The translations under genes and the position numbers were made by a program. The notes under the pieces are model-generated. The model did no database searches, had not been told where the DNA came from, and was given only the letters and a program-made list of their open reading frames with translations. A stretch of DNA of 64,000 nt from Escherichia coli (GTDB lineage Bacteria; Pseudomonadota; Gammaproteobacteria; Enterobacterales; Enterobacteriaceae). Below, piece by piece: positions 8,966 to 54,427 of the stretch. The stretch lies in NCBI RefSeq assembly GCF_024700885.2, contig NZ_CP117016.1; one strand, written 5' to 3'. Each line of letters begins with the position of its first letter. The first letter of the stretch is position 1.

Positions 8966-9033
8966 AGGCGCTATGAAATATAGCGCCCAGTTTCATTAAC
9001 CCGATGGTTCAGACTATCGGGTTTTCTTTTTTA
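8966..9033. terminator. Bidirectional intrinsic terminator region between convergent ybhJ and ybhC
   Basis: Two GC hairpins (GGCGCTAT..ATAGCGCC and CCCGATGG..CTATCGGG) flanked by A/T runs. Confidence 0.5.
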
Positions 9034-10314
9034 CTTCTTCGCCTCTGCAACCACTTTGCTACCCACGCCGCGGTTATTGTATTCCCACATGCGGTTGTAG
9101 TTAGTGTCATTCAGATTGCGTTGTATTTCGTCGCTATCGTCAACGCTGCCGGTGTTACCTGCGAATGGACGATTGGAAATCACCGCATCGGCCCACGGTT
9201 TCGCCGTGTTAAAACCTTCGTTGATGGCGCTATCACGGATCACCACCTGACCGTTGGTATTGGCATCAACATCCAGCGAGCGGCCCAGTTGCGCCACGCC
9301 ATCACCGGAAGCATTGAAACGGCTGTTTACGGCGAGGAAACCGTAATAGATGTTAGACAGCGTAGCCGGTGCAAACACATACGCTTCTTGCTGAGTACGT
9401 GAGTTCACCACGCGGAATTCGGTATTATCGAACACCACTGCGCCGCGACCAGAAACGATATCCACATCCCCTTCAATATAGCTGTTGGTCACCAGAGTAC
9501 GCGGCTGACGGTTGGTTTCCAGACGGTTTTGCACACCACTGTTGGTGACAAAGAAGGTATTCTGACGACCGAGAATGTTGACGTTATTGATCTGCACTTT
9601 GTCGCCATCAGTACGCAGTGCCACCGCCGGATGGTTACCCGCATCTACGCTATCGCCCAGCGTGTTTTCGATGGTCAGGTTTTGCAGTTGCAGGCCATTG
9701 TTTTGTGACCAGAAGACCGCAGAGCAGAGAACGCCGATACTGTCGCTGCGTTTGCTCTGGCAGCTATCGTACATATACCACGCTGGTTTACCTGGCATAT
9801 ATTTGCCGCGCGGGTTGACGTCATGACGCCAGTCGGCAGGGCTCATGCCCCCATCAAGGGAAAGCCCAATCTTCACATCAATCGGTTTTTCACCTGTACC
9901 GTACAGAGTAATTCCACCCGGAGCGGCAGGGACATATACCGTTCCCTGATACTCACCAGGCATCACGGCAATATACTGGCGCTTGTTGGTGCGCTTGATA
10001 ATTGCCGCATCTACCGCCGCCTGAATCGTGGTATGCGTTACACCTTGAGTACCCGCCGGGCCGACAACAAAGTCAGGTTGCGCAGGCAGGGTAATCGGGG
10101 AAGGATTCCACGCTGCCGCACCTGGTGTCAGGGATGCAAAATAGTGTTGAGCATCGAAATTCTGCGCTTCTTTTGCCGACAGAATCGGGCGAGAAGAGGT
10201 ACCAGGCGCGGTTTGATCAGAAGGACGTTGATCGGGCGGTGTTGAGCTACAGGCGGTCAGCGTCACGCCAAAAGCCAATGCCAGCGCCAGACGGGAAACT
10301 GAAAATGTGTTCAC
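9031..10314 (-). CDS. ybhC: Pectinesterase-like outer-membrane lipoprotein
   Basis: 427-aa minus ORF with signal peptide plus lipobox (LTACSS) and a pectin-methylesterase-like beta-helix. Confidence 0.85.
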   Translation of the reverse strand: MNTFSVSRLALALAFGVTLTACSSTPPDQRPSDQTAPGTSSRPILSAKEAQNFDAQHYFASLTPGAAAWNPSPITLPAQPDFVVGPAGTQGVTHTTIQAAVDAAIIKRTNKRQYIAVMPGEYQGTVYVPAAPGGITLYGTGEKPIDVKIGLSLDGGMSPADWRHDVNPRGKYMPGKPAWYMYDSCQSKRSDSIGVLCSAVFWSQNNGLQLQNLTIENTLGDSVDAGNHPAVALRTDGDKVQINNVNILGRQNTFFVTNSGVQNRLETNRQPRTLVTNSYIEGDVDIVSGRGAVVFDNTEFRVVNSRTQQEAYVFAPATLSNIYYGFLAVNSRFNASGDGVAQLGRSLDVDANTNGQVVIRDSAINEGFNTAKPWADAVISNRPFAGNTGSVDDSDEIQRNLNDTNYNRMWEYNNRGVGSKVVAEAKK

Positions 10315-10448: not shown

Positions 10449-11519
10449 TTATTTGATTTCAATTTTGTCCCACTCCCTGCCTCTGTCATCACGATACTGT
10501 GATGCCATGGTGTCCGACTTATGCCCGAGAAGATGTTGAGCAAACTTATCGCTTATCTGCTTCTCATAGAGTCTTGCAGACAAACTGCGCAACTCGTGAA
10601 AGGTTGGCGGATCCCCTTCGAAGGAAAGACCTGATGCTTTTCGTGCGCGCATAAAATACCTTGATACTGTGCCGGATGAAAGCGGTTCACGACGAGTAGA
10701 TGCAATTATGGTTTCTCCGCCAAGAATCTCTTTGCATTTACCAAGTGTTTCCTTCATTGATATCCCGAGAGCATCAACATGCAATGTTGTAGGGATGGCA
10801 ATTTTTACGCCTGTTTTGCTTTGCTCGACATAAAGATATCCATCTACGATATCAGACCACTTCATTTCGCATAAATCACCAACTCGCTGCCCGGTAACAA
10901 CAGCCAGTTCCATTGCAAGTCTGAGCCAACATGGTGATGATTCTGCTGCTTGATAAATTTTCAGGTATTCGTCAGCCGTAAGTCTTGATCTCCTTACCTC
11001 TGATTTTGCTGCGCGAGTGGCAGCGACCGGGTTTGTTGTTATATGGCCTTCAGCTATTGCCTCTCGGAATGCATCGCTCAGTGTTGATCTGATTAACTTG
11101 GCTGACGCCGCCTTGCCCTCGTCTATGTATCCATTGAGCATTGCCGCAATTTCTTTTGTGGTGATGTCTTCAAGTGAAACATCAGGCAGACCCCTCCTTA
11201 TTGCTTTAATTTTGCTCATGTAATTTATGAGTGTCTTCTGCTTGATTCCTCTGCTGGCGAGGATTTTTTCGTAGCGATCAAGCCATGAATGTAACGTAAC
11301 AGAATTATCACTGTTGATTCTCGCTGTCAGAGGCTTGTGTTTGTGTCCTGAAAATAACTCAATATTGGCCTGTATTGCTTCAGTAATTGCTATCCTCCTG
11401 TCTCTGCCTAATCCGAACTCTTTACCCGTCCTTGGGTCCCTGTAGCAGTAATATCCATTGTTTCTTATATAAAGGTTAGGGGGTAAATCCCGGCGCTCAT
11501 GACTTCGCCTTCTTCCCAT
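10449..11519 (-). CDS. int: Lambda-type integrase (tyrosine recombinase)
   Basis: 356-aa ORF MGRRRSHERRDLPPNLYIRNNGYYCYRDPRTGKEF..., recognised as lambda Int; adjacent to attL. Confidence 0.95.
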   Translation of the reverse strand: MGRRRSHERRDLPPNLYIRNNGYYCYRDPRTGKEFGLGRDRRIAITEAIQANIELFSGHKHKPLTARINSDNSVTLHSWLDRYEKILASRGIKQKTLINYMSKIKAIRRGLPDVSLEDITTKEIAAMLNGYIDEGKAASAKLIRSTLSDAFREAIAEGHITTNPVAATRAAKSEVRRSRLTADEYLKIYQAAESSPCWLRLAMELAVVTGQRVGDLCEMKWSDIVDGYLYVEQSKTGVKIAIPTTLHVDALGISMKETLGKCKEILGGETIIASTRREPLSSGTVSRYFMRARKASGLSFEGDPPTFHELRSLSARLYEKQISDKFAQHLLGHKSDTMASQYRDDRGREWDKIEIK

Positions 11520-18369: not shown

Positions 18370-18696
18370 TCAAATAAGTGGTTTGCTGCCTAATTTCATT
18401 TTCTGGCGACCAACACAAGTCACGCCCATTTCACTGCGTGGCTTGCTGTACCATGTGCGCTGATTCTTGCGCTCAATACGTTGCAGGTTGCTTTCAATCT
18501 GTTCGTGGTATTCAGCCAGCGCCGTAAGGTCTATCGGATTCAGTGCGCTTTCTACTCGTGATTTCGGTTTGCGATTCAGCGAGAGAATAGGGCGGCTAAC
18601 TGGTTTTGCGCTTACCCCAACCAACAGGGGATTTGCTGCTTTCCATTGAGCCTGTTTCTCTGCGCGACGTTCGCGGCGGCGTGTTTGTGCATCCAT
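18370..18696 (-). CDS. N: Antitermination protein N
   Basis: Internal start of track ORF: MDAQTRRRERRAEKQAQWKAANPLLVGVSAKPV..., the arginine-rich motif of lambda/434 N. Confidence 0.9.
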   Translation of the reverse strand: MDAQTRRRERRAEKQAQWKAANPLLVGVSAKPVSRPILSLNRKPKSRVESALNPIDLTALAEYHEQIESNLQRIERKNQRTWYSKPRSEMGVTCVGRQKMKLGSKPLI

Positions 18697-18858
18697 CTGG
18701 ATTCTCCTGTCAGTTAGCTTTGGTGGTGTGGTAGGTGGGAGACCCATTTCGACCTGCTTCGGCCGACTTCAATTCGGCAATAGTTCCGCAGGCCTCGCCG
18801 CTTTACGTGCGACATATTCCCATCCATGAACCCTTCACCACACCCCAAAGCCTTCTGC

Positions 18859-18944: not shown

Positions 18945-19012
18945 ACAAGAAAGATTGTATGTTGTAAACAAGAAATATTGTAAAAATGGGCGTGAAAAAC
19001 AAACTCCATTGT
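18945..19012. promoter_or_regulatory. OL operator cluster / pL region (three 434-type ACAA-N6-TTGT sites)
   Basis: ACAAGAAAGATTGT (18945..18958), ACAAGAAATATTGT (18968..18981), ACAAACTCCATTGT (18999..19012). Confidence 0.6.
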
Positions 19013-19062: not shown

Positions 19063-20415
<1,353 letters not shown>

Positions 20416-27079: not shown

Positions 27080-27154
27080 GGGTCAGTCGTATAAAGGTCA
27101 TTACGGAAGGCTGTTAACCTTCTTATCGTGGTTCGAGTCCACGCTGTCCCGCCA
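27080..27154 (+). tRNA. tRNA-like gene, anticodon GTT (Asn-like)
   Basis: Hand-folded cloverleaf: acceptor GGGTCAG/CTGTCCC (one mismatch), anticodon stem GAAGG/CCTTC with loop CTGTTAA, T-arm CGTGG-TTCGAGT-CCACG, discriminator G and CCA. Confidence 0.5.
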
Positions 27155-27159
27155 AATAT

Positions 27160-27235
27160 GCTGGTTTAGCTCCAATGGTAGAGCAGTCGCCTTGTAAACG
27201 AATGGGTAGCGGTTCAAGTCCGTTAACCAGCACCA
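27160..27235 (+). tRNA. tRNA-like gene, anticodon TGT (Thr-like)
   Basis: Acceptor GCTGGTT/AACCAGC, canonical D-arm GCTC-CAATGGTA-GAGC, T-arm AGCGG-TTCAAGT-CCGTT, CCA end; anticodon stem has two mismatches. Confidence 0.5.
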
Positions 27236-44830: not shown

Positions 44831-45379
44831 TTAGTGTAATCTCTGATCGTCTGAATCGTGTAAGAACTCCATGAGACTTTGAACCGGAATTGGTTCTATT
44901 GATGATAATGTGAACACAGGAATATTGAGACTTTTGCAACGCTCAAACACTCCCTTATCATGAGTCCATACCTCGTCAGCATTAATTGCTCTTGCAATTG
45001 CTATTATTTGTCTGTCAAACTTAATTTTGTTTGCTGTACCTTCTGTGCTAATTTTCCTTAATTCTTTTAATGTTGGTATCGATGCGCATTCAATAGCAGC
45101 CAACTCATCAAATGATACAGTTTCGAAGCACGATAACGATTTGATAACATTCAGTTTTTCTTGTTGGTAATCTTTATGGATTCCAACTAAAAACTCCGCC
45201 AATACAGGAGTTGGAACGATGATTGTCCCGTTCTTGTTATCTATTCGATCAACAAGAGCTTCTGCTCTTCTTTTGGCATCTGGAATCTCAGAACCAAGTA
45301 TAGGGTCAGATAATCTATAATCGTGTTCTATATCTGATAGTAGGTATACCAGAATATTGGTATCTAAAATTACTCGCAA
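44831..45379 (-). CDS. PIN-domain nuclease-like protein
   Basis: 182-aa ORF MRVILDTNILVYLL... with acidic residues spaced as in PIN domains (D6, E~62, D~122, WTHDKG); start overlaps the upstream gene. Confidence 0.7.
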   Translation of the reverse strand: MRVILDTNILVYLLSDIEHDYRLSDPILGSEIPDAKRRAEALVDRIDNKNGTIIVPTPVLAEFLVGIHKDYQQEKLNVIKSLSCFETVSFDELAAIECASIPTLKELRKISTEGTANKIKFDRQIIAIARAINADEVWTHDKGVFERCKSLNIPVFTLSSIEPIPVQSLMEFLHDSDDQRLH

Positions 45380-46089
45380 TTTATCTTCCTCAGAGTCCTA
45401 AGGATTGAATCAACATCGCGTTCCTCGGACCACTGATCTCCAGGAACTTGCTTGATAGCATTAATAGCATCCTTGAGTGATGATTTTTTGAGCAATACAA
45501 ATGAAGTTATTTTTAGTTTCTTTAGCTCCCATTTGTTGTTCTTTTTTTCCCAGCACCCATCTCCTTTAACCCTAATATATTTGAATAGATGGGACCCAAG
45601 AGCTGCCGCCAAATCAGGGGTTGCCTCGCACTTGAATGTTTCACCGTTGGCTCCCTCAATACGCACAGGTATTGAGTTGTCTTTTCCGCCAACACTGTAT
45701 AGCCTTCCTTGAACTTCTGACGTTTTTGTTATGAGTAAAGGGATTGGCTCCTTTTTTACTCGCGGGAATGCGATAATGGTTGAGTGGTTTCGTCCGAGTA
45801 GTTTCGCTGAAAAACCATCATGCTCCAGTAAATTAACAATTTTTTGATACGCGGGTGATTTCTCTTTGGCTGAGAGAGAGGCCCTTGCTATGACAGCGTT
45901 ATAACAAATATCATTATCGACCCATGCATTTAAGTCAGCCGATCCTTCACTTACACAGTCGAAGTGAACAGAATCTGCAGAACCGTATAGATCTACGAGA
46001 GCAGACATATACTTGACCAACTTAGCCATTGACAGCTGGCCAGGGGTGGTTCCGTCAAGTTTTAATGTGAGTCCATTGCTTTTTTTCAT
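45370..46089 (-). CDS. Hypothetical protein (239 aa), partner of the PIN-domain gene
   Basis: ORF directly downstream of mnt on the same strand, overlapping the PIN gene by 10 nt; no recognised domain. Confidence 0.6.
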   Translation of the reverse strand: MKKSNGLTLKLDGTTPGQLSMAKLVKYMSALVDLYGSADSVHFDCVSEGSADLNAWVDNDICYNAVIARASLSAKEKSPAYQKIVNLLEHDGFSAKLLGRNHSTIIAFPRVKKEPIPLLITKTSEVQGRLYSVGGKDNSIPVRIEGANGETFKCEATPDLAAALGSHLFKYIRVKGDGCWEKKNNKWELKKLKITSFVLLKKSSLKDAINAIKQVPGDQWSEERDVDSILRTLRKINCE

Positions 46090-46138: not shown

Positions 46139-46393
46139 CTATAACTTACTTTTGCTATAAATATTTTTCAGCGTTTCAAAGACCATCTTCTTAACAACGT
46201 CAGATTGCTCATCCGCGACTCGCTCAGCTTCGTCTCGATGGCCTACAATTGATGATGGCTTTGAGAGAGCATCCTGAACGATTTGTAATAACTCAGAGTT
46301 CATTGACCTTCCGTTAGCCTCTGCTCTTAATTTCAATTTTTCTCTTACTTCCAAAGGCATACGGAAGTTAAAGTGCGGATCGTCTCTAGCCAT
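46139..46393 (-). CDS. mnt: Mnt repressor (P22 immI)
   Basis: MARDDPHFNFRMPLEVREKLKLRAEANGRSMNSELLQIVQDALSKP..., ribbon-helix-helix; matches P22 Mnt. Confidence 0.9.
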   Translation of the reverse strand: MARDDPHFNFRMPLEVREKLKLRAEANGRSMNSELLQIVQDALSKPSSIVGHRDEAERVADEQSDVVKKMVFETLKNIYSKSKL

Positions 46394-46420
46394 GCCATCA
46401 CCCCAAGTTAGTGTATTGAC

Positions 46421-46468
46421 ATGATAGAAGCACTCTACTATATTCTCAATAGGTCCACCGTGGACCTA
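46421..46468. promoter_or_regulatory. Oarc and Omnt operators with divergent Pant/Pmnt promoters
   Basis: ATGATAGAAGCACTCTACTAT (46421..46441) and near-palindrome TAGGTCCACCGTGGACCTA (46450..46468), matching P22 immI operators. Confidence 0.75.
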
Positions 46469-46483
46469 TATTGTGAGGTAAAT

Positions 46484-46642
46484 ATGAAAGGAATGAGCAA
46501 AATGCCGCAGTTCAATTTGCGGTGGCCTAAAGAAGTATTGGATTTGGTGCGCAAGGTAGCTGAAGAGAACGGGCGATCTGTTAACTCTGAGATTTATAAG
46601 CGAGTGATGGACAGCCTGAAGAGAGAGGGGATAACGGTATGA
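46484..46642 (+). CDS. arc: Arc repressor (P22 immI)
   Basis: MKGMSKMPQFNLRWPKEVLDLVRKVAEENGRSVNSEIYKRVMDSLKREG..., matches P22 Arc. Confidence 0.9.
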   Translation: MKGMSKMPQFNLRWPKEVLDLVRKVAEENGRSVNSEIYKRVMDSLKREGITV

Positions 46643-46860
46643 AGTTTATTGAGGTTGATGAGATTGGCTATGAGAATGCACTTGGTAGAGGTAAATCTTT
46701 AGTTAACGTTAATGGCATTGAGTCGATAAGGAGCGGTGAATTTACGGAGATCAGAATGATGTCAGGTGGAATCATTCCTTGCCGTGATTCAGTAGAGTCA
46801 ATCAAAGCAAGAATGAGTGGTCAGTGGCTTTATAACTACAGTGACTTACAAAAACAGTGA
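46639..46860 (+). CDS. Hypothetical protein (73 aa) between arc and ant
   Basis: ORF with overlapping start/stop to arc and to the ant upstream frame. Confidence 0.45.
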
Positions 46861-46922
46861 AGCCCCAACTGCGGGAACAGTCAGGGCTTCGGGTGTCAGT
46901 AAATCCGTGGAGAAAAACCAAC

Positions 46923-47825
46923 ATGAATAGTATAGCAATTTTAGAAGCAGTGAACACCTCTTACGTGCCTTTCAATGGTCAGCAAATTATCACCGCCATG
47001 GCTGCCGGAGTTGCATATGTTGCGATGAAGCCAATCGTTGAAAACCTTGGAATGAGCTGGTCAACGCAGCAAACAAAACTCATGAAGCAGATTAGCAAAT
47101 TCAACTGTGTTCATATGAACATGGTTGCCGCTGATGGGAAGCTTCGTAAGCTACTCTGCCTTCCTTTGAAGAAGTTAAATGGATGGCTGTTCAGCATCAA
47201 CCCTGAGAAAGTTCGTGCTGACATCCGCGATAAACTGATTCAGTACCAGGAAGAATGCTTTACTGTGCTGCATGACTACTGGACAAAGGGAAAGGCAGAA
47301 AATGCACGTAAGAAAACATCTGTTGATGACAGGACTCCGCTTCGTGATGCTGTAAATATGCTGGTCAGCAAAAAGCATCTAATGTACCCAGAAGCTTATG
47401 CAATGATTCATCAGCGTTTCAATGTGGAAAGTATTGAAGAGCTTGATGCATCTCAGATACCGCAAGCCGTAGAGTACATCCACAGGGTAGTACTTGAAGG
47501 CGAGTTAATCGGCAAACAAGAGAAGAAAGCAAACGAGCTTTCTGCAAAAGAAGCAAACAGCCTTGTATGGTTATGGGATTATGCCAACCGCTCACAGGCA
47601 TTATTCCGCGAACTGTATCTGGCGCTAAAACAAATTCAATCGAACTATTCCGGCAGATGCTACGACTACGGTCATGAATTCTCGTATGTTATCGGAATGG
47701 CGAGAGACGTTTTAATAAACCACACACGAGATGTTGATATTAATGAGCCAGACGGACCAACGAATCTTTCCGCATGGATGAGACTTAAGAATAAAGAATT
47801 ACCTCCTTCAGTACATAACTACTGA
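46923..47825 (+). CDS. ant: Antirepressor Ant (P22 immI)
   Basis: Internal start [47 protein letters not shown]..., matches P22 Ant (300 aa). Confidence 0.85.
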
Positions 47826-47844
47826 CAGATAACCAACGCAACGA

Positions 47845-47872
47845 CCTAGCTTCGGCTGGGTTTTTTTATGCC
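47845..47872 (+). terminator. Putative intrinsic terminator after ant
   Basis: Hairpin CCTAGCTTCGGCTGGG followed by TTTTTTTAT. Confidence 0.4.
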
Positions 47873-48209
47873 CAAAATTCACCGTAGCCATGCTGCGGCG
47901 ATTCCTTGTATTTGGAGCAAATTAAATGACAGATATTATAAATAGGAATTGTTATTTAATAATGTTTGAAAATAAAAATCATGGACGATAGGAATAAAGG
48001 TATTACTTGTTTTTATTTTTGTAAGTGACGCATTAAGCGCATAAATAATATGCCTGTTGATCAAGATTCTTGAGTATTGTAAAATAATCGTTTTGTTCAT
48101 GTTGCATGGTTTTTAAATGAATAGAAGGTTATTTTTCAAAACAATTGCATCGTTGTCTGCAGTCATTCCGTTTTCTTCAATATCTAAATCTTCAAACAGG
48201 ATGACTAAT

Positions 48210-50795
48210 ATGCCTGATATAACCCCAAATGTTGTGATAGGTATGCCATCGCAACTCTTCACAATGGCTAGCTCTTTTAAAACCGTAGCAAATGGAAAAA
48301 TTTATATCGGTAAGATTGACACAGATCCGGTAAATCCAGAAAACCAGATTCCAGTATATCTGGAACGAGAAGATGGTACTTATGTTCAGGTGCCACAGCC
48401 AATCGTTATCAATGCTGCTGGATACCCGGTATACAACGGACAGATTTCCAAATTCGTTACCGTGCAAGGCCATTCTATGGCTGTTTACGATGCATATGGT
48501 ACGCAGCAGTTCTATTTTCCGAATGTGCTTAAGTACGATCCTGACCAATTAAGACAACAATTAGAAGACCCGGAAGGTGCTAAAAAATATCATGAATTGC
48601 AGATGTCTCGGTGGCGTGATGACGCTGACCCTCGCGGATGGGGAGCAAAAGGTGATGGCATCACCGATGACACATTATCTTTTCAAGAGTTAGAAAAACA
48701 AATCACAGGAAGGATTGTTGATCTAAGGGGTAATACATATATAACAGATCAAGTTTTTGATGGAAATAAGTATATAAATGGCTATTTTCGCACAGAGAAT
48801 CGATTACTGCCAGATGCTGATTTTACTGAAAAAAGAATACAAACTATAAAAAAGGGGATGTATACAGGTTTCAGACCTTCTACTCCTAATCATGTTAAGT
48901 CAGGGTTGCGACTGGCAACAATTAAAAATACTGTCATACAGGGTGCTGTTCTTGATTATTATGACAGTGTTCTTTATTGCTTGGTAAATGTGAGTGGCAG
49001 CGTTAGTTCTGGTGACGAAGTTAATAAAGTTGTTGCTTATAATTGGTTTGGGAATGAAGAGTTAACTCCTCTTTGGGAGACTAAAGGTAGTAGAGAATTA
49101 GGACATCAATGTCTTGGTTTAACCATAGGGCGCGTTGGTTTTCGTAACACAAGAGGCCAGTTACAGATATGGGGGTTAGCTGGCACAGCTAAAGGAGAGG
49201 ATCGCGCAAAGTATATCACCAGATTCACCCCTACTGATGGTGGTGAAATTGAACCAGAGTTTTTTCTCATATGGGAAGATGGTTACGAGAATCAGGTAAA
49301 TGTTTTATGCACCGACCCTATGAGTCGATGGCTGATTACTACAGCAAAACGTTATGTTGGCCCTGGTGAGAGCCCATCAACACCAGATCAAATTCGCTAT
49401 TATGTAAAAGTATTTGATACCAGCAAATTTATTAACCCGCAGGCGTACAATTACGATTATCGTAATGAAGCAACTTTTGAATTTGAAATTGCCGATTTTG
49501 TGAGGGATATGCAAACAGTTGCGTGTGACGGTACTGCTATTTATTTTTGTCAGGCTGGATCTGCATATTCTTCAACCAGAAAATATTTGCATCAGTACAC
49601 ACTTGATGGTGTTTATCTTGGGGTGCAGCAAATACAGGCAGGTGCAGGAAGAGCCTATGAAATAGCAGATCCAAATGATACCGGAACGCCAGATGTTAGC
49701 AATCTTACATATGAACCAGAAGCAATGTTTTTCCGTATGATTGCAGGTGGGTATGACCTTGTAATGGGGAATACAAATGGCATACCAGATGGTGATAGTG
49801 GGCGAGAAACTACATTTTACACATTAATGCCACAACAGGTAATGCATGTAAAAACAACATCAAGAAATCAGCCTGGTATTATCATTGATTCAACCCATGA
49901 TATTGTCACTAACTCTGGTTTGTTAAGCCTTGGTAAAATTATGCCTGGTGGTGAAGTCATAGAGCAGGCAAACCTTGATGACAAAGGATTCACTGTTTCG
50001 AGGGCAACAACACAAGCCGCCCGTTATGATGCAAAGAATACGTTACGGAATGTAACTTTTCATGTTAGTGAAAAAGGTGATACCGGTATTTATGACTTTA
50101 CCAATGCTCAATGGATATTTAAATCTCCCTTATCAACATCTTCATATTCGTATATCGGTCAGTCAGCGGAGGTTAATGGCTATATAAGTGCTAATAAAGA
50201 TAATACGTCATCATGTGGGACATCATCTAAACGGTGGACGCAAGTATATGCAACTAATGGGGCAATAAATACTTCAGACCAGACATTGAAAACAAAGCCA
50301 CTGACAGTAGAGCAACTTTCAGAAATCATGGAGGTGGATCAGGATGCAATTCTTGACGCATGGGGTGACGTAAATATTATCGTTTACCAGTGGTTGTCCG
50401 ATATTAAGGCTAAAGGTTCGGATACTGCTCGTTGGCATTTCGGAGCAATTGCACAGCAGGTAAGAGATGCGTTTCTTGCAAAGGGGATAGATGGAACAAG
50501 ATTTGGCTTGCTATGTCATGATAAATGGGATGATGAGTACCAACCTGTAATGGCACAGCGCAAGGTGTCATTTATAGCTAAATCCCCTGAAGGGGAAGAC
50601 ATCGTTCGCGAATACTTTGAAGAATACGATACTGGTGACACGGAACTGGTTGTACATGCTGGTGAGCGTTGGGGATTGCGTCCAGATGAATGTTTGTGGT
50701 TGGAGGCTGCATTCCAGCGAAGAAGGTGTGAACGCATTGAGTCTCGTTTAACAGAGCTTGAATTGATAATTAAAAAAGCAAAAGAGATAGAGTAG
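48210..50795 (+). CDS. Tailspike: P22-like head-binding N-domain, distinct beta-helix-like receptor-binding body, C-terminal chaperone-like domain
   Basis: Start at ATG 48210 ([50 protein letters not shown]...); [11 protein letters not shown] motif; C-terminal segment ([10 protein letters not shown]...[13 protein letters not shown]...[11 protein letters not shown]) resembles auto-cleaving intramolecular chaperone domains. Confidence 0.85.
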
Positions 50796-51475: not shown

Positions 51476-51952
51476 TTAACTAAACATCGCAGTAATCGAG
51501 GCGCTTGCCAGAGAATGGAAATGGACGTTAAACCCGACCATCGCGCCGCTGGCACCTTCATCGACATCAATACGTTCTACATCCAGCGCGTGAACGGTAA
51601 AAATGTAGCGATGGGTTTCGCCTTTCGGCGGCGCTGCACCATCGTACCCGGTTTTACCAAAGTCGGTACGCGTCTGCAAAACGCCGTCTGGCATTGCTAC
51701 CAGACCAGAGCCAAACCCTTGCGGTAATACGCGGGTATCCGCGGGTAAATTAACAACTACCCAGTGCCACCAGCCGGAGCCAGTTGGCGCATCCGGGTCG
51801 TAGCAGGTGACAACAAAACTTTTCGTTCCCACAGGAACATCATCCCACGCCAGATGCGGTGAAATATTATCGCCATCGTAACCCATGCCGTTAAAGACAT
51901 GACGATGCGGCAACTTATCGCCATCGCGCAGATCATTACTGATGAGTTTCAT
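51476..51952 (-). CDS. ybhB: PEBP/YbhB-family protein
   Basis: 158-aa ORF MKLISNDLRDGDKLPHRHVFNGMGYDGDNISPHLAWDDVP..., PEBP family. Confidence 0.85.
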   Translation of the reverse strand: MKLISNDLRDGDKLPHRHVFNGMGYDGDNISPHLAWDDVPVGTKSFVVTCYDPDAPTGSGWWHWVVVNLPADTRVLPQGFGSGLVAMPDGVLQTRTDFGKTGYDGAAPPKGETHRYIFTVHALDVERIDVDEGASGAMVGFNVHFHSLASASITAMFS

Positions 51953-52010
51953 GAACCCTCCTTTCTAGTTTGCAGAAAGTGTAGCCAGAAACCCTCACGC
52001 TGACTTCCCG

Positions 52011-53300
52011 TTATTGGCAAAAAAATGTTTCATCCTGCACCGCACGATTAACCGCTGCGGTCAGACGCTGCAACTGTTGCGGGAGAATAATATAGGGCGG
52101 CATCAGGTAAATCAGTTTGCCAAAAGGCCGGATCCAGACACCCTGTTCGACAAAGAATTTTTGCAGCGCTGCCATATTCACCGGACGAGTGGTTTCGACC
52201 ACGCCGATTGCCCCCAGTACGCGCACATCGGCAACCATTTCGGCGTCACAGGCGGGGGCAAGTTGCTCGCGTAGCTGCCCTTCAATAGCCGCCACCTGAT
52301 GCTGCCAGTCGCCAGATTCGAGAATCGCCAGGCTGGCGTTTGCTGCTGCGCAGGCCAGCGGATTGCCCATAAAAGTTGGCCCATGCATAAAGCAGCCGGC
52401 TTCGCCGTTACTGATGGTTTCCGCAACCTCGCGCGTGGTGAGCGTGGCGGAAAGGGTCATTGTGCCGCCGGTTAAGGCTTTACCGAGACATAAAATATCC
52501 GGCGCGATTTCTGCATGTTCACAGGCAAACAGTTTGCCGGTACGACCAAATCCGGTGGCGATCTCGTCGGCAATCAGCAAGATACCTTCGCGATCGCACA
52601 TTTTGCGGATTCGTTTTAACCATTCCGGATGGTACATGCGCATCCCGCCTGCGCCCTGGACAATCGGTTCAATGATCACCGCCGCGATTTCATGACGATG
52701 CGCCGCCATCAGGCGGGCAAAGCCCACCATATCGCGCTCATCCCATTCGCCATCCATGCGGCTTTGCGGGGCGGGAGCAAACAAGTTTTCTGGCAGATAG
52801 CCTTTCCACAGGCTGTGCATTGAGTTGTCCGGATCGCACACCGACATCGCGCCAAAGGTATCGCCATGATAACCATTGCGGAAGGTCAGAAAACGCTGGC
52901 GCGCTTCGCCTTTGGCCTGCCAGTACTGCAACGCCATTTTCATCGCCACTTCTACCGCTACGGAGCCGGAGTCCGCGAGAAAAACGCATTCCAGCGGTTG
53001 CGGCGTCATCGCCACCAGTTTGTGGCACAGCTCAATGGCTGGCGCATGAGTGATACCGCCAAACATCACATGCGACATGGCATCAATTTGCGACTTCATC
53101 GCCGCATTAAGCTGCGGGTGATTGTAACCGTGGATCGCCGCCCACCAGGACGACATACCGTCAACCAGGCGTCTGCCGTCAGACAAAATTAGCTCGCAAC
53201 CTTCGGCGCTCGCCACCGGATAAACCGGTAGCGGGGAGGTCATGGATGTGTATGGGTGCCAGATATGGCGTTGGTCAAAGGCAAGATCGTCCGTTGTCAT
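52011..53300 (-). CDS. bioA: Adenosylmethionine-8-amino-7-oxononanoate aminotransferase
   Basis: Start trimmed to [20 protein letters not shown]...; class III PLP aminotransferase. Confidence 0.9.
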
Positions 53301-53307
53301 AATCGAC

Positions 53308-53347
53308 TTGTAAACCAAATTGAAAAGATTTAGGTTTACGAGTCTAC
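53308..53347. promoter_or_regulatory. bioO: bio operator (BirA site) with divergent bioA/bioBFCD promoters
   Basis: Imperfect palindrome TTGTAAACCAAATTGAAAAGATTTAGGTTTACGAGTC between divergent bioA and bioB. Confidence 0.7.
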
Positions 53348-53386
53348 ACCGAATTAACAACAAAAAACACGTTTTGGAGAAGCCCC

Positions 53387-54427
53387 ATGGCTCACCGCCC
53401 ACGCTGGACATTGTCGCAAGTCACAGAATTATTTGAAAAACCGTTGCTGGATCTGCTGTTTGAAGCGCAGCAGGTGCATCGTCAGCATTTCGATCCACGT
53501 CAGGTGCAGGTCAGCACGTTGCTGTCAATTAAGACCGGAGCTTGTCCGGAAGATTGCAAATACTGCCCGCAAAGCTCGCGCTACAAAACCGGGCTGGAAG
53601 CCGAGCGGTTGATGGAAGTTGAACAGGTGCTGGAGTCGGCGCGCAAAGCGAAAGCGGCGGGATCGACGCGTTTCTGTATGGGCGCGGCGTGGAAGAATCC
53701 CCACGAACGCGATATGCCGTACCTGGAACAAATGGTGCAGGGAGTAAAAGCGATGGGGCTGGAGGCGTGTATGACGCTGGGTACGTTGAGTGAATCTCAG
53801 GCGCAGCGCCTTGCGAATGCCGGGCTGGATTACTACAACCATAACCTCGACACCTCGCCGGAGTTTTACGGCAATATCATCACCACACGTACTTATCAGG
53901 AACGCCTTGATACGCTGGAAAAAGTGCGCGATGCCGGGATCAAAGTCTGCTCAGGTGGCATTGTGGGTTTAGGCGAAACGGTAAAAGATCGCGCCGGATT
54001 ATTACTGCAACTGGCAAACCTGCCGACGCCGCCGGAAAGCGTGCCAATCAACATGCTCGTGAAGGTGAAAGGTACTCCACTGGCAGATAACGATGATGTC
54101 GATGCCTTTGATTTTATTCGCACCATTGCCGTAGCGCGGATCATGATGCCGACCTCTTACGTGCGCCTTTCTGCCGGACGCGAGCAGATGAACGAACAGA
54201 CTCAGGCGATGTGCTTTATGGCCGGGGCTAACTCAATTTTCTACGGTTGCAAACTGCTAACCACGCCGAATCCGGAAGAAGATAAAGACCTGCAACTGTT
54301 CCGCAAACTGGGGCTAAATCCGCAGCAAACTGCCGTGCTGGCAGGGGATAACGAACAACAGCAGCGTCTGGAGCAGGCACTGATGACCCCGGACACTGAC
54401 GAATATTACAACGCGGCAGCGCTATGA
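53387..54427 (+). CDS. bioB: Biotin synthase (radical SAM)
   Basis: 346-aa ORF with CPEDCKYC radical-SAM cysteine motif. Confidence 0.95.

Follow-up and report, generated by a model that had tools for sequence, protein, structure and literature searches.

The prophage pairs a 434-type immC with a complete P22-type immI

The stretch of DNA analysed here (the window, 64,000 nucleotides of an Escherichia coli genome) contains a P22-like prophage, sited at the lambda attachment site. Its primary immunity region, immC, is of the 434 type. The repressor gene cI lies on the minus strand at 19464..20096, and residues 2-70 of its product match residues 1-69 of the 434 repressor in the PDB (E 9.1e-38); cro, on the plus strand at 20200..20415, encodes a protein whose residues 1-71 match the PDB entry for 434 Cro (E 1.4e-42). 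Repressor and Cro are both of 434 specificity. A motif scan combined with reading of the sequence placed the OR operators at 20129..20186 (OR1, ACAAGAAAGTTTGT; OR2, ACAAGATACATTGT; OR3, ACAAGAAAAACTGT), with OR3, at 20129, being read directly off the sequence. The OL sites, at 18945..19012, were recognised as matches to ACAA-N6-TTGT. This motif has five exact matches in the whole window, where 1.5 would be expected by chance, and all five fall at OL (18945-19012) or OR (20151-20186). The arrangement is that of 434 immC, with the 14-bp ACAA-N6-TTGT operator in triplicate at both OR and OL.

The prophage additionally carries a complete P22-type immI, consisting of mnt, the Pant and Pmnt promoters, the operators Oarc and Omnt, arc, the antisense RNA sar, and ant. 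The bipartite immunity proposed in the initial annotation, a 434-type immC together with a complete P22-type immI, is thus borne out by the matches of cI, Cro and their operators on the one hand and of Mnt, Arc, Ant and sar on the other. P22 Ant acts on several lambdoid repressors, and the 434-type cI is presumed to be its target here.

At the left end of immI, mnt (46139..46393, minus strand) encodes the maintenance repressor, a protein of 84 amino acids with Pfam matches to Arc (5.8e-27) and Repressor_Mnt (4.8e-13). It shares 82% identity with P22 Mnt, the N-terminal arm that reads the operator being unchanged, and its gene is transcribed divergently from arc, as is typical of a P22-type immI. 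The promoter scan identified Pant (TTGACA-17-TATATT, 11/12 matches) on the plus strand at 46416..46444, collinear with the annotated P22 promoter and driving arc, orf73 and ant. The same scan found Pmnt (TTGAGA-17-TATCAT) on the minus strand at 46421..46449, the position annotated in P22, so that the two promoters overlap face-to-face in the P22 manner. The operators had been called recognisable, and indeed Oarc (46421..46441) agrees at 21/21 positions with the arc operator annotated in P22, and Omnt (46445..46467) at 22/23 with the mnt operator, differing solely in the base at the centre of the palindrome. The Pant operon begins with arc (46484..46642, plus strand; 52 amino acids; Pfam Arc, 1.7e-27), whose product is 85% identical to P22 Arc and ends in ...REGITV, where P22 Arc ends in ...KEGRIGA. 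A mechanical ORF call for arc begins upstream, at 46421.

An additional cistron lies between arc and sar

In a three-gene immI, arc is followed by the sar/ant spacer with no further cistron. Here a gene of 73 codons, orf73 (46639..46860, plus strand; predicted pI 5.3), is inserted between arc and sar/ant. Its ATG overlaps the arc stop codon (ATGA), a Shine-Dalgarno sequence, GAGGGG, precedes it by 8 nt, and the promoter scan detected no sigma-70-like promoter between Pant and orf73. Alignment confirmed that this is an extra cistron relative to P22: about 210 bp containing orf73, between approximately codon 48 of arc and the sar terminator, are missing from both P22 and epsilon34. The final ~45 nt of arc form part of the conserved orf73 module. 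A 5-bp direct repeat (TGAAG) at the borders of the insertion was considered as a target duplication and rejected, being too short and lacking conservation in Emek-type copies.

Downstream, ant (46923..47825, plus strand) encodes an antirepressor of 300 amino acids with the P22_AR_N (2.9e-45) and P22_AR_C (1.2e-27) domains expected of Ant, sharing 86% identity with P22 Ant across 300/300 residues. The initial annotation described orf73 as overlapping its neighbours at both start and stop. The overlap at the start, with the arc stop, is real; that with ant was an artefact of a longest-ORF call that used GTG 46857. This codon is used as the ant start neither by PGAP or GenBank annotations nor by P22 homology, and we prefer ATG 46923, at the equivalent of which the RefSeq and GenBank homologues of ant begin. 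The true gap between orf73 and ant is 62 nt; it is occupied by sar, and ant has its own Shine-Dalgarno sequence.

The RNA gene had been overlooked in the earlier statement that ant directly follows arc in P22, where a 68-nt spacer between the two in fact encodes sar. In the prophage, sar occupies 46856..46922 on the minus strand and matches Rfam RF00262 over its full length (83.6 bits where the gathering score is 43; E 3.6e-17). The 5' portion of the RNA complements the ribosome-binding site of ant, the antisense arrangement of a P22-type immI, and the 3' end runs over the stop codon of orf73. A terminator scan placed the sar terminator, a 14-bp hairpin followed by the tail ACTGTTTTTG, at 46849..46890 (minus strand), such that the tail lies antisense to codons 70-73 of orf73 and to its stop; the final codons of orf73 (...CAA AAA CAG TGA) provide the A-run that becomes the U-tail on the opposite strand. 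Psar lies within the 5' end of ant (46929..46957, minus strand) and is identical to the annotated P22 Psar at 28/29 positions; a generic sigma-70 scan did not detect it. All seven other orf73 loci scanned also had a sar match directly 3' of orf73 (58-88 bits). Finally, the terminator scan found a hairpin followed by TTTTTAT after ant (47843..47872, plus strand), positioned as in the P22 and Emek annotations.

orf73 is a real gene found in a single genetic slot

We found orf73 in 50 of 5,426 complete E. coli genomes. Every one of the 50 carries a single copy, which is adjacent to arc by annotation among the matches listed, and no copy outside the arc-sar slot was found among these 50 or the 22 loci examined. 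The slot is identical in 22/22 of those loci, including that of a homologue only 60% identical. In all 22 the orf73 start overlaps the arc stop (as ATGA or GTGA) and ant starts 61-63 nt past orf73, and in 21 of the 22 the sar hairpin follows orf73 with the exact pattern. The loci span at least four Arc/operator types and at least six Ant N-terminal types, and the Ant types represented do not share any one segment across the whole set. What all orf73 loci have in common is confined to the 3' end of arc, orf73 itself and the sar hairpin.

The sequence of orf73 is already known. It matches PHROG 11805 end to end (E 4.5e-52; residues 1-73 aligned to positions 1-73 of the profile) and is annotated as 'hypothetical' in phages Emek (there also as orf73) and vB_EcoP-611R6. 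The initial annotation had proposed an alignment with P22 and its relatives, in which an equivalent ORF would count against an extra gene. P22 and epsilon34 indeed lack the ORF, but Emek, vB_EcoP-611R6 and the 50 E. coli genomes have it. Its distribution is mosaic, a minority of related phages carrying the gene. The family is small, comprising eight clusters at 90% identity, and an exhaustive phmmer search of 1.84 billion representatives returned one true divergent homologue; a further candidate, P0009, was discarded as a repetitive artefact resulting from a low-complexity match (GQWSYSY). Truncated or frameshifted copies occur occasionally (P0004, P0007, P0008). The plasmid collection held no copy, the PADLOC-DB defence models gave no match at E <= 1, and NCBIfam gave none. 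We found no discussion of the gene in the literature on immI/arc/ant, Emek or phage FlbD.

Comparison of orf73 with the 60%-identical homologue (P0006/L005) gave a dN/dS of 0.17 at a dS of 1.3, which is saturated, and the homologue keeps the reading frame across an 11-codon insertion. At the sequence level orf73 is thus under purifying selection. Together with the conserved frame, overlapping start and location, this ratio marks orf73 as a real gene rather than a chance ORF.

The orf73 product is predicted to resemble SwrD/FlbD and RemA

The AF2 model of the orf73 protein has a pLDDT of 78.8, rising to about 91 in the core, and could be over-interpreted because the underlying alignment holds eight sequences. 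The model has five strands, joined by loops of 3-4 residues, and a C-terminal helix, the predicted fold being that common to SwrD/FlbD and RemA. Its BFVD matches were small proteins of phages that take their name from Pfam FlbD (TM 0.65-0.8). The Pfam FlbD profile itself (PF06289) scored 12.7 bits against orf73, under its gathering score of 24.7 bits, and similarly weak matches were obtained with all eight members of the family (best E 0.007). The closest solved structure was RemA, followed by the LytTR domains of AgrA and ComE. A Foldseek search of the PDB gave nothing significant (best E 0.2). A sequence search of the PDB with the orf73 family profile returned FAIM1 as its sole result (E 0.089), which we regard as a chance match.

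SwrD, of the FlbD family, and RemA share a fold, with SwrD lacking the beta3-beta4 helical insertion through which RemA binds DNA, using Arg51 and Arg53 (PMC13232269). This insertion is also absent from the orf73 model, and hhalign of orf73 against an approximate RemA sequence gave no signal (probability 0.8%). With 9 K/R against 10 D/E residues, the predicted product is a small (8.2 kDa), acidic, soluble and beta-rich protein that resembles the SwrD/FlbD-RemA type. A GS-linked concatemer of six copies did not yield a confident oligomer in AF2 (pTM 0.23, pLDDT 46), a weak method when the alignment contains eight sequences.

Discussion

On balance, we lean towards a view of orf73 as a genuine fourth cistron of immI, encoding an accessory protein that is co-made with Arc from Pant and works independently of Ant. 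The Pant transcript would carry orf73 together with arc and ant, and its translation would be coupled to that of arc through the ATGA overlap, in addition to having its own GAGGGG Shine-Dalgarno sequence. Given this co-transcription and coupling, and by analogy with the biology of P22, we infer that the protein appears alongside Arc during the short spell in which Pant fires once the DNA has entered, and a second time with late read-through. In the lysogen, Mnt would keep orf73 silent. The block imposed by sar should spare it, acting as it would at the ant ribosome-binding site 62 nt downstream. The insertion leaves the circuit otherwise whole, with sar, Psar and the terminator hairpin all retained and the upstream frame still stopping at the foot of the sar hairpin. 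Since the predicted protein lacks the basic DNA-binding helical insertion of RemA, its most likely mode of action is through protein-protein contacts with a host or competitor target. It would do so irrespective of the accompanying Ant or Arc allele, as an accessory gene nested in the 'ant moron', the immI block that in P22 lies between gene 16 and the tailspike gene (PMC2629481).

The association of orf73 with several unrelated Arc and Ant alleles favours such an Ant-independent accessory over an Ant-specific modulator. Confinement to the arc-sar slot could instead point to a function bound up with the immI circuit. The protein might then be a dedicated modulator, binding Ant as a chaperone or inhibitor, binding Arc, or altering the pairing of sar with ant mRNA, as the invariant position between arc and sar/ant, even in the 60%-identical homologue, would suggest. 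Translational coupling to arc, by which orf73 would be made in proportion to Arc, is also in keeping with this idea, and there is a precedent in P1 icd, a small gene 5' of ant annotated as needed for ant expression. However, a modulator would have to serve all of the Ant and Arc/operator types found with orf73, which have no Ant segment in common, and in P22 and epsilon34 the circuit is whole without orf73. Termination-reinitiation coupling from orf73 to ant is unavailable, because ant has its own Shine-Dalgarno sequence beyond a 62-nt gap, and the invariant slot can also be accounted for by recombination joints in the two conserved flanks, namely the terminal ~45 nt of arc and the hairpin of the sar terminator. 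We therefore regard a dedicated modulator as unlikely.

Icd of P1 also invites the idea of a host-takeover factor that transiently disturbs some host process, for example cell division, flagellar-motor function or motility. P1 icd is likewise 73 codons long and occupies the same relative place in an ant operon controlled by an antisense RNA; furthermore, the predicted fold and the weak Pfam matches of orf73 recall FlbD/SwrD, and SwrD affects motor output, with a contact to MotA having been predicted (PMC13232269). Yet despite equal length and similar position, orf73 shows no sequence similarity to Icd (BLASTP E 14), and we rejected it as a homologue. The SwrD/FlbD system is absent from E. coli, biochemical validation of the SwrD-MotA interaction failed (PMC13232269), and the fold is generic among many small phage proteins, all of which make a role of this kind distinctly improbable. 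We hold a similarly doubtful opinion of a more ambitious proposal, that orf73 is a ring protein of the SwrD/RemA fold serving as a fourth component of P22-type secondary immunity, perhaps gating Ant or the sar-ant mRNA interaction, and could be the first of the widespread 'FlbD-like' small phage proteins with a defined regulatory context.

That RemA, and then LytTR of AgrA and ComE, are the closest solved structures raises the prospect of a third DNA-binding protein in immI, beside Mnt and Arc. This we judge very improbable, given that the model lacks the RemA insertion with its two arginines, that the protein is acidic, that hhalign found no relationship to the approximate RemA sequence, and that no further conserved operator-like repeat is evident across the orf73 loci. 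It is scarcely credible that the ORF is non-functional as a protein gene, with its DNA acting in cis as a spacer or sar terminator tail or being simply junk: the tiny size of the family, with its one divergent relative, and the occasional broken copies would fit, but the low dN/dS at saturated dS, the frame kept over an 11-codon indel, the conserved start overlap and Shine-Dalgarno sequence, a confident fold prediction from a shallow alignment and the termination of P22 sar without orf73 DNA all argue against it.

The P22 immI of Mnt, Arc, sar and Ant is a textbook regulatory circuit, and the locus described here is a modest variant of it. With orf73 coupled to arc and ending exactly at the sar terminator, the locus shows that the circuit can take on cargo with its antisense control undisturbed, and that some phages, a minority, keep such cargo. 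If orf73 does influence antirepression, or acts on the host in the first minutes of infection, then a classic switch gains a component and many small FlbD/SwrD-like phage proteins a first role. The ring-protein reading, if true, would likewise give a handle on the role of the phage FlbD-like class. Should orf73 be a mere passenger, it would represent an ordinary case of lambdoid mosaicism.

Comparison with known systems

SwrD/FlbD (PF06289) and RemA (DUF370) are small ring-forming beta-proteins, which the orf73 product resembles in predicted fold, with a sub-threshold Pfam FlbD score. Their setting is different: orf73 lies in a prophage immI, with no flagellar or biofilm genes around it, rather than in a fla-che operon as for SwrD/FlbD, and its hosts are E. 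coli and Salmonella, in contrast to the Firmicutes and spirochaetes that harbour SwrD/FlbD and RemA.

A closer parallel in organisation is the immI of P1 (c4 antisense RNA, icd, ant1/ant2), where a gene of 73 codons again lies just 5' of the antirepressor gene and ant translation is under the control of a small antisense RNA (record NC_005856). However, icd of P1 runs to 48691, past the ant1 start at 48688, so that the two overlap, and the record describes translation of icd as 'apparently required for expression of ant' (NC_005856), whereas here 62 nt and a separate ant Shine-Dalgarno sequence intervene. The antisense RNA also lies downstream of orf73 but upstream of icd.

The immI of P22 and epsilon34 has the same gene order and orientation as that of the prophage (mnt, Pmnt/Pant, arc, sar, ant). 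Identity between the proteins is 82-86%, conservation extends to sar, Psar and the two terminators, and the block likewise lies between an ejection-protein gene and the tailspike gene (PMC2629481). The differences are that P22 and epsilon34 lack the ~210 bp containing orf73, with Arc ending in RIGA there and ITV here, and that primary immunity in P22 is c2/cro rather than 434-type. In P22 it is arc that ends at the foot of the sar hairpin. Finally, Salmonella phage vB_SemP_Emek (AFM54340.1) and Escherichia phage vB_EcoP-611R6 (URC09203.1) carry the same gene as the prophage (92-96% amino acid identity), with the ATGA overlap with arc and the sar hairpin past the stop just as here, but set in different flanks: Emek has other operators and another Ant, and 611R6 another Arc and operator set.

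Results

The window is E. coli chromosome, its 601 queried bases being 100% identical to strain MLI114, and contains a lambdoid prophage at the lambda attachment site (attB), flanked by ybhC (pectinesterase) on one side and ybhB/bioA on the other. The attB-related features, namely the ybhC and ybhB/bioA flanks and a lambda-type integrase with an Arm-DNA-binding domain, occupy 10449..11519, 9031..10314 and 51476..53411 (minus strand). A lambda-N-like antiterminator lies at 18370..18747 and the virion genes are P22-like. The prophage is a mosaic in which lambda int/N and a 434 immC are combined with virion and immI genes of P22. It also encodes two neighbouring tRNAs, Asn-GTT and Thr-TGT (27080..27235, plus strand).

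The initial annotation described the immunity as bipartite, combining a 434-type immC with a P22-type immI, and this proved correct. The cI protein matched the solved 434 repressor at 9e-38 and Cro matched 434 Cro at 1e-42; every ACAA-N6-TTGT site in the window falls in the OL and OR clusters, and mnt, arc, sar and ant are all present. Directly downstream of cI is a 158-aa ORF (19063..19539, minus strand), which as a longest-ORF call overlaps the 3' end of cI. It has a signal-peptide-like segment of 20 residues and no match in a Pfam search; it may occupy the rex/sieB position and encode a secreted protein or lipoprotein expressed in the lysogen.

The immI segment, which separates the last ejection-protein gene from the tailspike gene, is named the "ant moron" in the epsilon34 genome paper and is highly variable among P22-like phages (PMC2629481; PMC8022706). 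It comprises mnt (46139..46393, minus strand; Pfam Arc and Repressor_Mnt domains), arc (46484..46642, plus strand; Pfam Arc domain), the additional 73-aa ORF, here orf73 (46639..46860, plus strand), and ant (46923..47825, plus strand; Pfam P22_AR_N and P22_AR_C domains). Mnt, Arc and Ant are 82%, 85% and 86% identical to their P22 counterparts, and the P22 cis sites are retained in Oarc (21/21 identical), Omnt (22/23) and Psar (28/29). A promoter scan recovered Pant and Pmnt, face-to-face, and a terminator follows ant, with a second, minus-strand one immediately beyond orf73. Rfam identified a full-length sar RNA, absent from the initial annotation, at 46856..46922 (minus strand; 83.6 bits, gathering score 43). 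By every defining feature tested, save the canonical three-gene layout, the region belongs to the P22 immI family. The longest-ORF call for arc (46421..46642, plus strand) is likewise 73 aa and is not orf73; it arises from an in-frame ATG inside Oarc, the real start by homology being ATG 46484.

On either side of immI, two features merit mention. The tailspike (48117..50795, plus strand; 892 aa) combines the P22 head-binding domain with a C-terminal Peptidase_S74 intramolecular-chaperone domain and a sub-threshold match to an endosialidase N-terminal extension; translation probably begins at the internal MTNMPDIT... methionine, not at 48117. The slot of P22 sieA is filled by two overlapping genes (44831..46089, minus strand), encoding a 239-aa protein of unknown function (45370..46089; PHROG 19868) and a 182-aa PIN-domain protein (44831..45379; Pfam PIN 4e-10, with weak VapC-like NCBIfam matches). 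The same pair adjoins mnt in E. coli 19AR1724. Neither gene had a PADLOC match; together they may form a toxin-antitoxin or superinfection-exclusion/defence module.

Alignment with P22 and epsilon34 revealed about 210 bp missing from both, extending from arc codon ~48 to base 1 of the sar terminator hairpin; because of this, Arc ends in ...REGITV rather than ...KEGRIGA. The ATG of orf73 and the stop codon of arc overlap in ATGA, with a Shine-Dalgarno sequence (GAGGGG) 8 nt upstream; the orf73 TGA opens GAAGCCCC, which forms the foot of the sar hairpin. Of the overlaps originally proposed at both ends of the ORF, the one at the start is therefore real, whereas the stop is separated from ant by 62 nt. 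The supposed overlap came from a longest-ORF start for ant at GTG 46857; P22 homology, the ant Shine-Dalgarno sequence and all GenBank/RefSeq annotations of homologous loci support ATG 46923 instead. The sar terminator has a 3' tail (minus strand, ACTGTTTTTG) that is antisense to the final codons of orf73, and so the insertion provides the terminator U-run; in P22, by contrast, this tail lies opposite the end of arc.

Although missing from P22 and epsilon34, the ORF is annotated in Salmonella phage vB_SemP_Emek, as orf73, and in Escherichia phage vB_EcoP-611R6. It has been deposited and clustered previously, though never discussed: public records label it "hypothetical protein", it constitutes PHROG 11805 (function unknown), and a literature search found no discussion of it. 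It occurs in 50 of 5,426 complete E. coli genomes, once in each, always on the chromosome and at DNA identity of at least 95%, and is present in Salmonella too; a search of a plasmid collection found none. We compared 22 loci (the window, three from phages or metagenomes, four from E. coli and 14 from IMG/VR, one of which duplicates Emek). The overlap of arc stop and orf73 start and an orf73-to-ant spacer of 61-63 nt were found in all 22, and the exact sar hairpin pattern in 21. The flanks are mosaic, with at least four Arc/operator types and at least six Ant N-terminal types in many combinations, and no Ant segment was common to all the Ant types. The conserved block consists of the last ~45 nt of arc, orf73 and the sar terminator hairpin, and both its flanks look like recombination joints. 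The hairpin GAAGCCCCAACTGCGGGAACAGTCAGGGCTTC (46859..46890; loci L001-L024) is nearly invariant despite completely different ant genes, while the 5' halves of sar also differ. In every locus scanned sar directly follows orf73 and exceeds the Rfam threshold (98 down to 59 bits). The hairpin looks like a fixed recombination joint, and each ant type appears to come with a sar 5' stem that matches it.

Discussion

In P22, Pant is active briefly after infection until Arc turns it off, Mnt holds it off in lysogens, and sar blocks ant translation (PMC2629481; P22 record annotation). On this precedent, orf73 would be made alongside Arc, outside sar control, and would be silent in the lysogen. All cis elements of the immI circuit are preserved despite the insertion, and orf73 occurs with unrelated Arc and Ant alleles; we therefore lean towards an early accessory protein that would work by protein-protein contacts and whose target would not be Ant. 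The main rival, that orf73 is a true modulator of immI, draws on its strictly invariant position, but with such varied partners we consider it rather improbable. Less likely still are an Icd-like or SwrD-like host effector and a RemA-like DNA binder.

No curated family matched the orf73 protein at threshold; Pfam FlbD, whose gathering score is 24.7 bits, reached 12.7, although eight of eight family members hit it over the same region. An AlphaFold2 model (mean pLDDT 78.8; ~91 for residues 20-60) has five short strands and a C-terminal helix. Foldseek found nothing significant in the PDB, and among viral models dozens of small phage proteins, in many cases with FlbD-derived names (TM 0.65-0.8). 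SwrD, an FlbD-family protein, assembles into hexameric rings, has a RemA-like fold and is without the beta3-beta4 helical insertion that in RemA bears the DNA-binding arginines (2026 preprint, PMC13232269). The inter-strand loops of the orf73 model are all short, as in SwrD and unlike RemA, and the protein is acidic (pI 5.3). A six-copy linker-concatenated model, a weak approach to ring formation, gave a pTM of 0.23.

That orf73 is a non-functional ORF is also less likely, since sequence comparison shows that it is a real gene. Its sole divergent relative found anywhere, P0006 (84 aa, 60-69% identical), occupies the same slot, where its start overlaps a preceding arc-like gene (GTGA) and the same hairpin and a different ant follow. 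The reading frame is kept across an 11-codon insertion placed in a low-confidence loop, and dN/dS is 0.17 (Nei-Gojobori), with dS saturated at 1.3; close copies give 0.14-0.7, from very few substitutions. Three altered database copies (P0004, P0007 and P0008), one running on into the sar region (90-aa read-through), one truncated (48 aa) and one with a 45-aa internal deletion, reflect either occasional gene decay or assembly errors.

The closest functional analogy to the extra cistron is the P1 immI (c4-icd-ant), in which a 73-codon ORF also precedes ant under antisense-RNA control. The two ORFs share no homology, and the geometry of their coupling is different.
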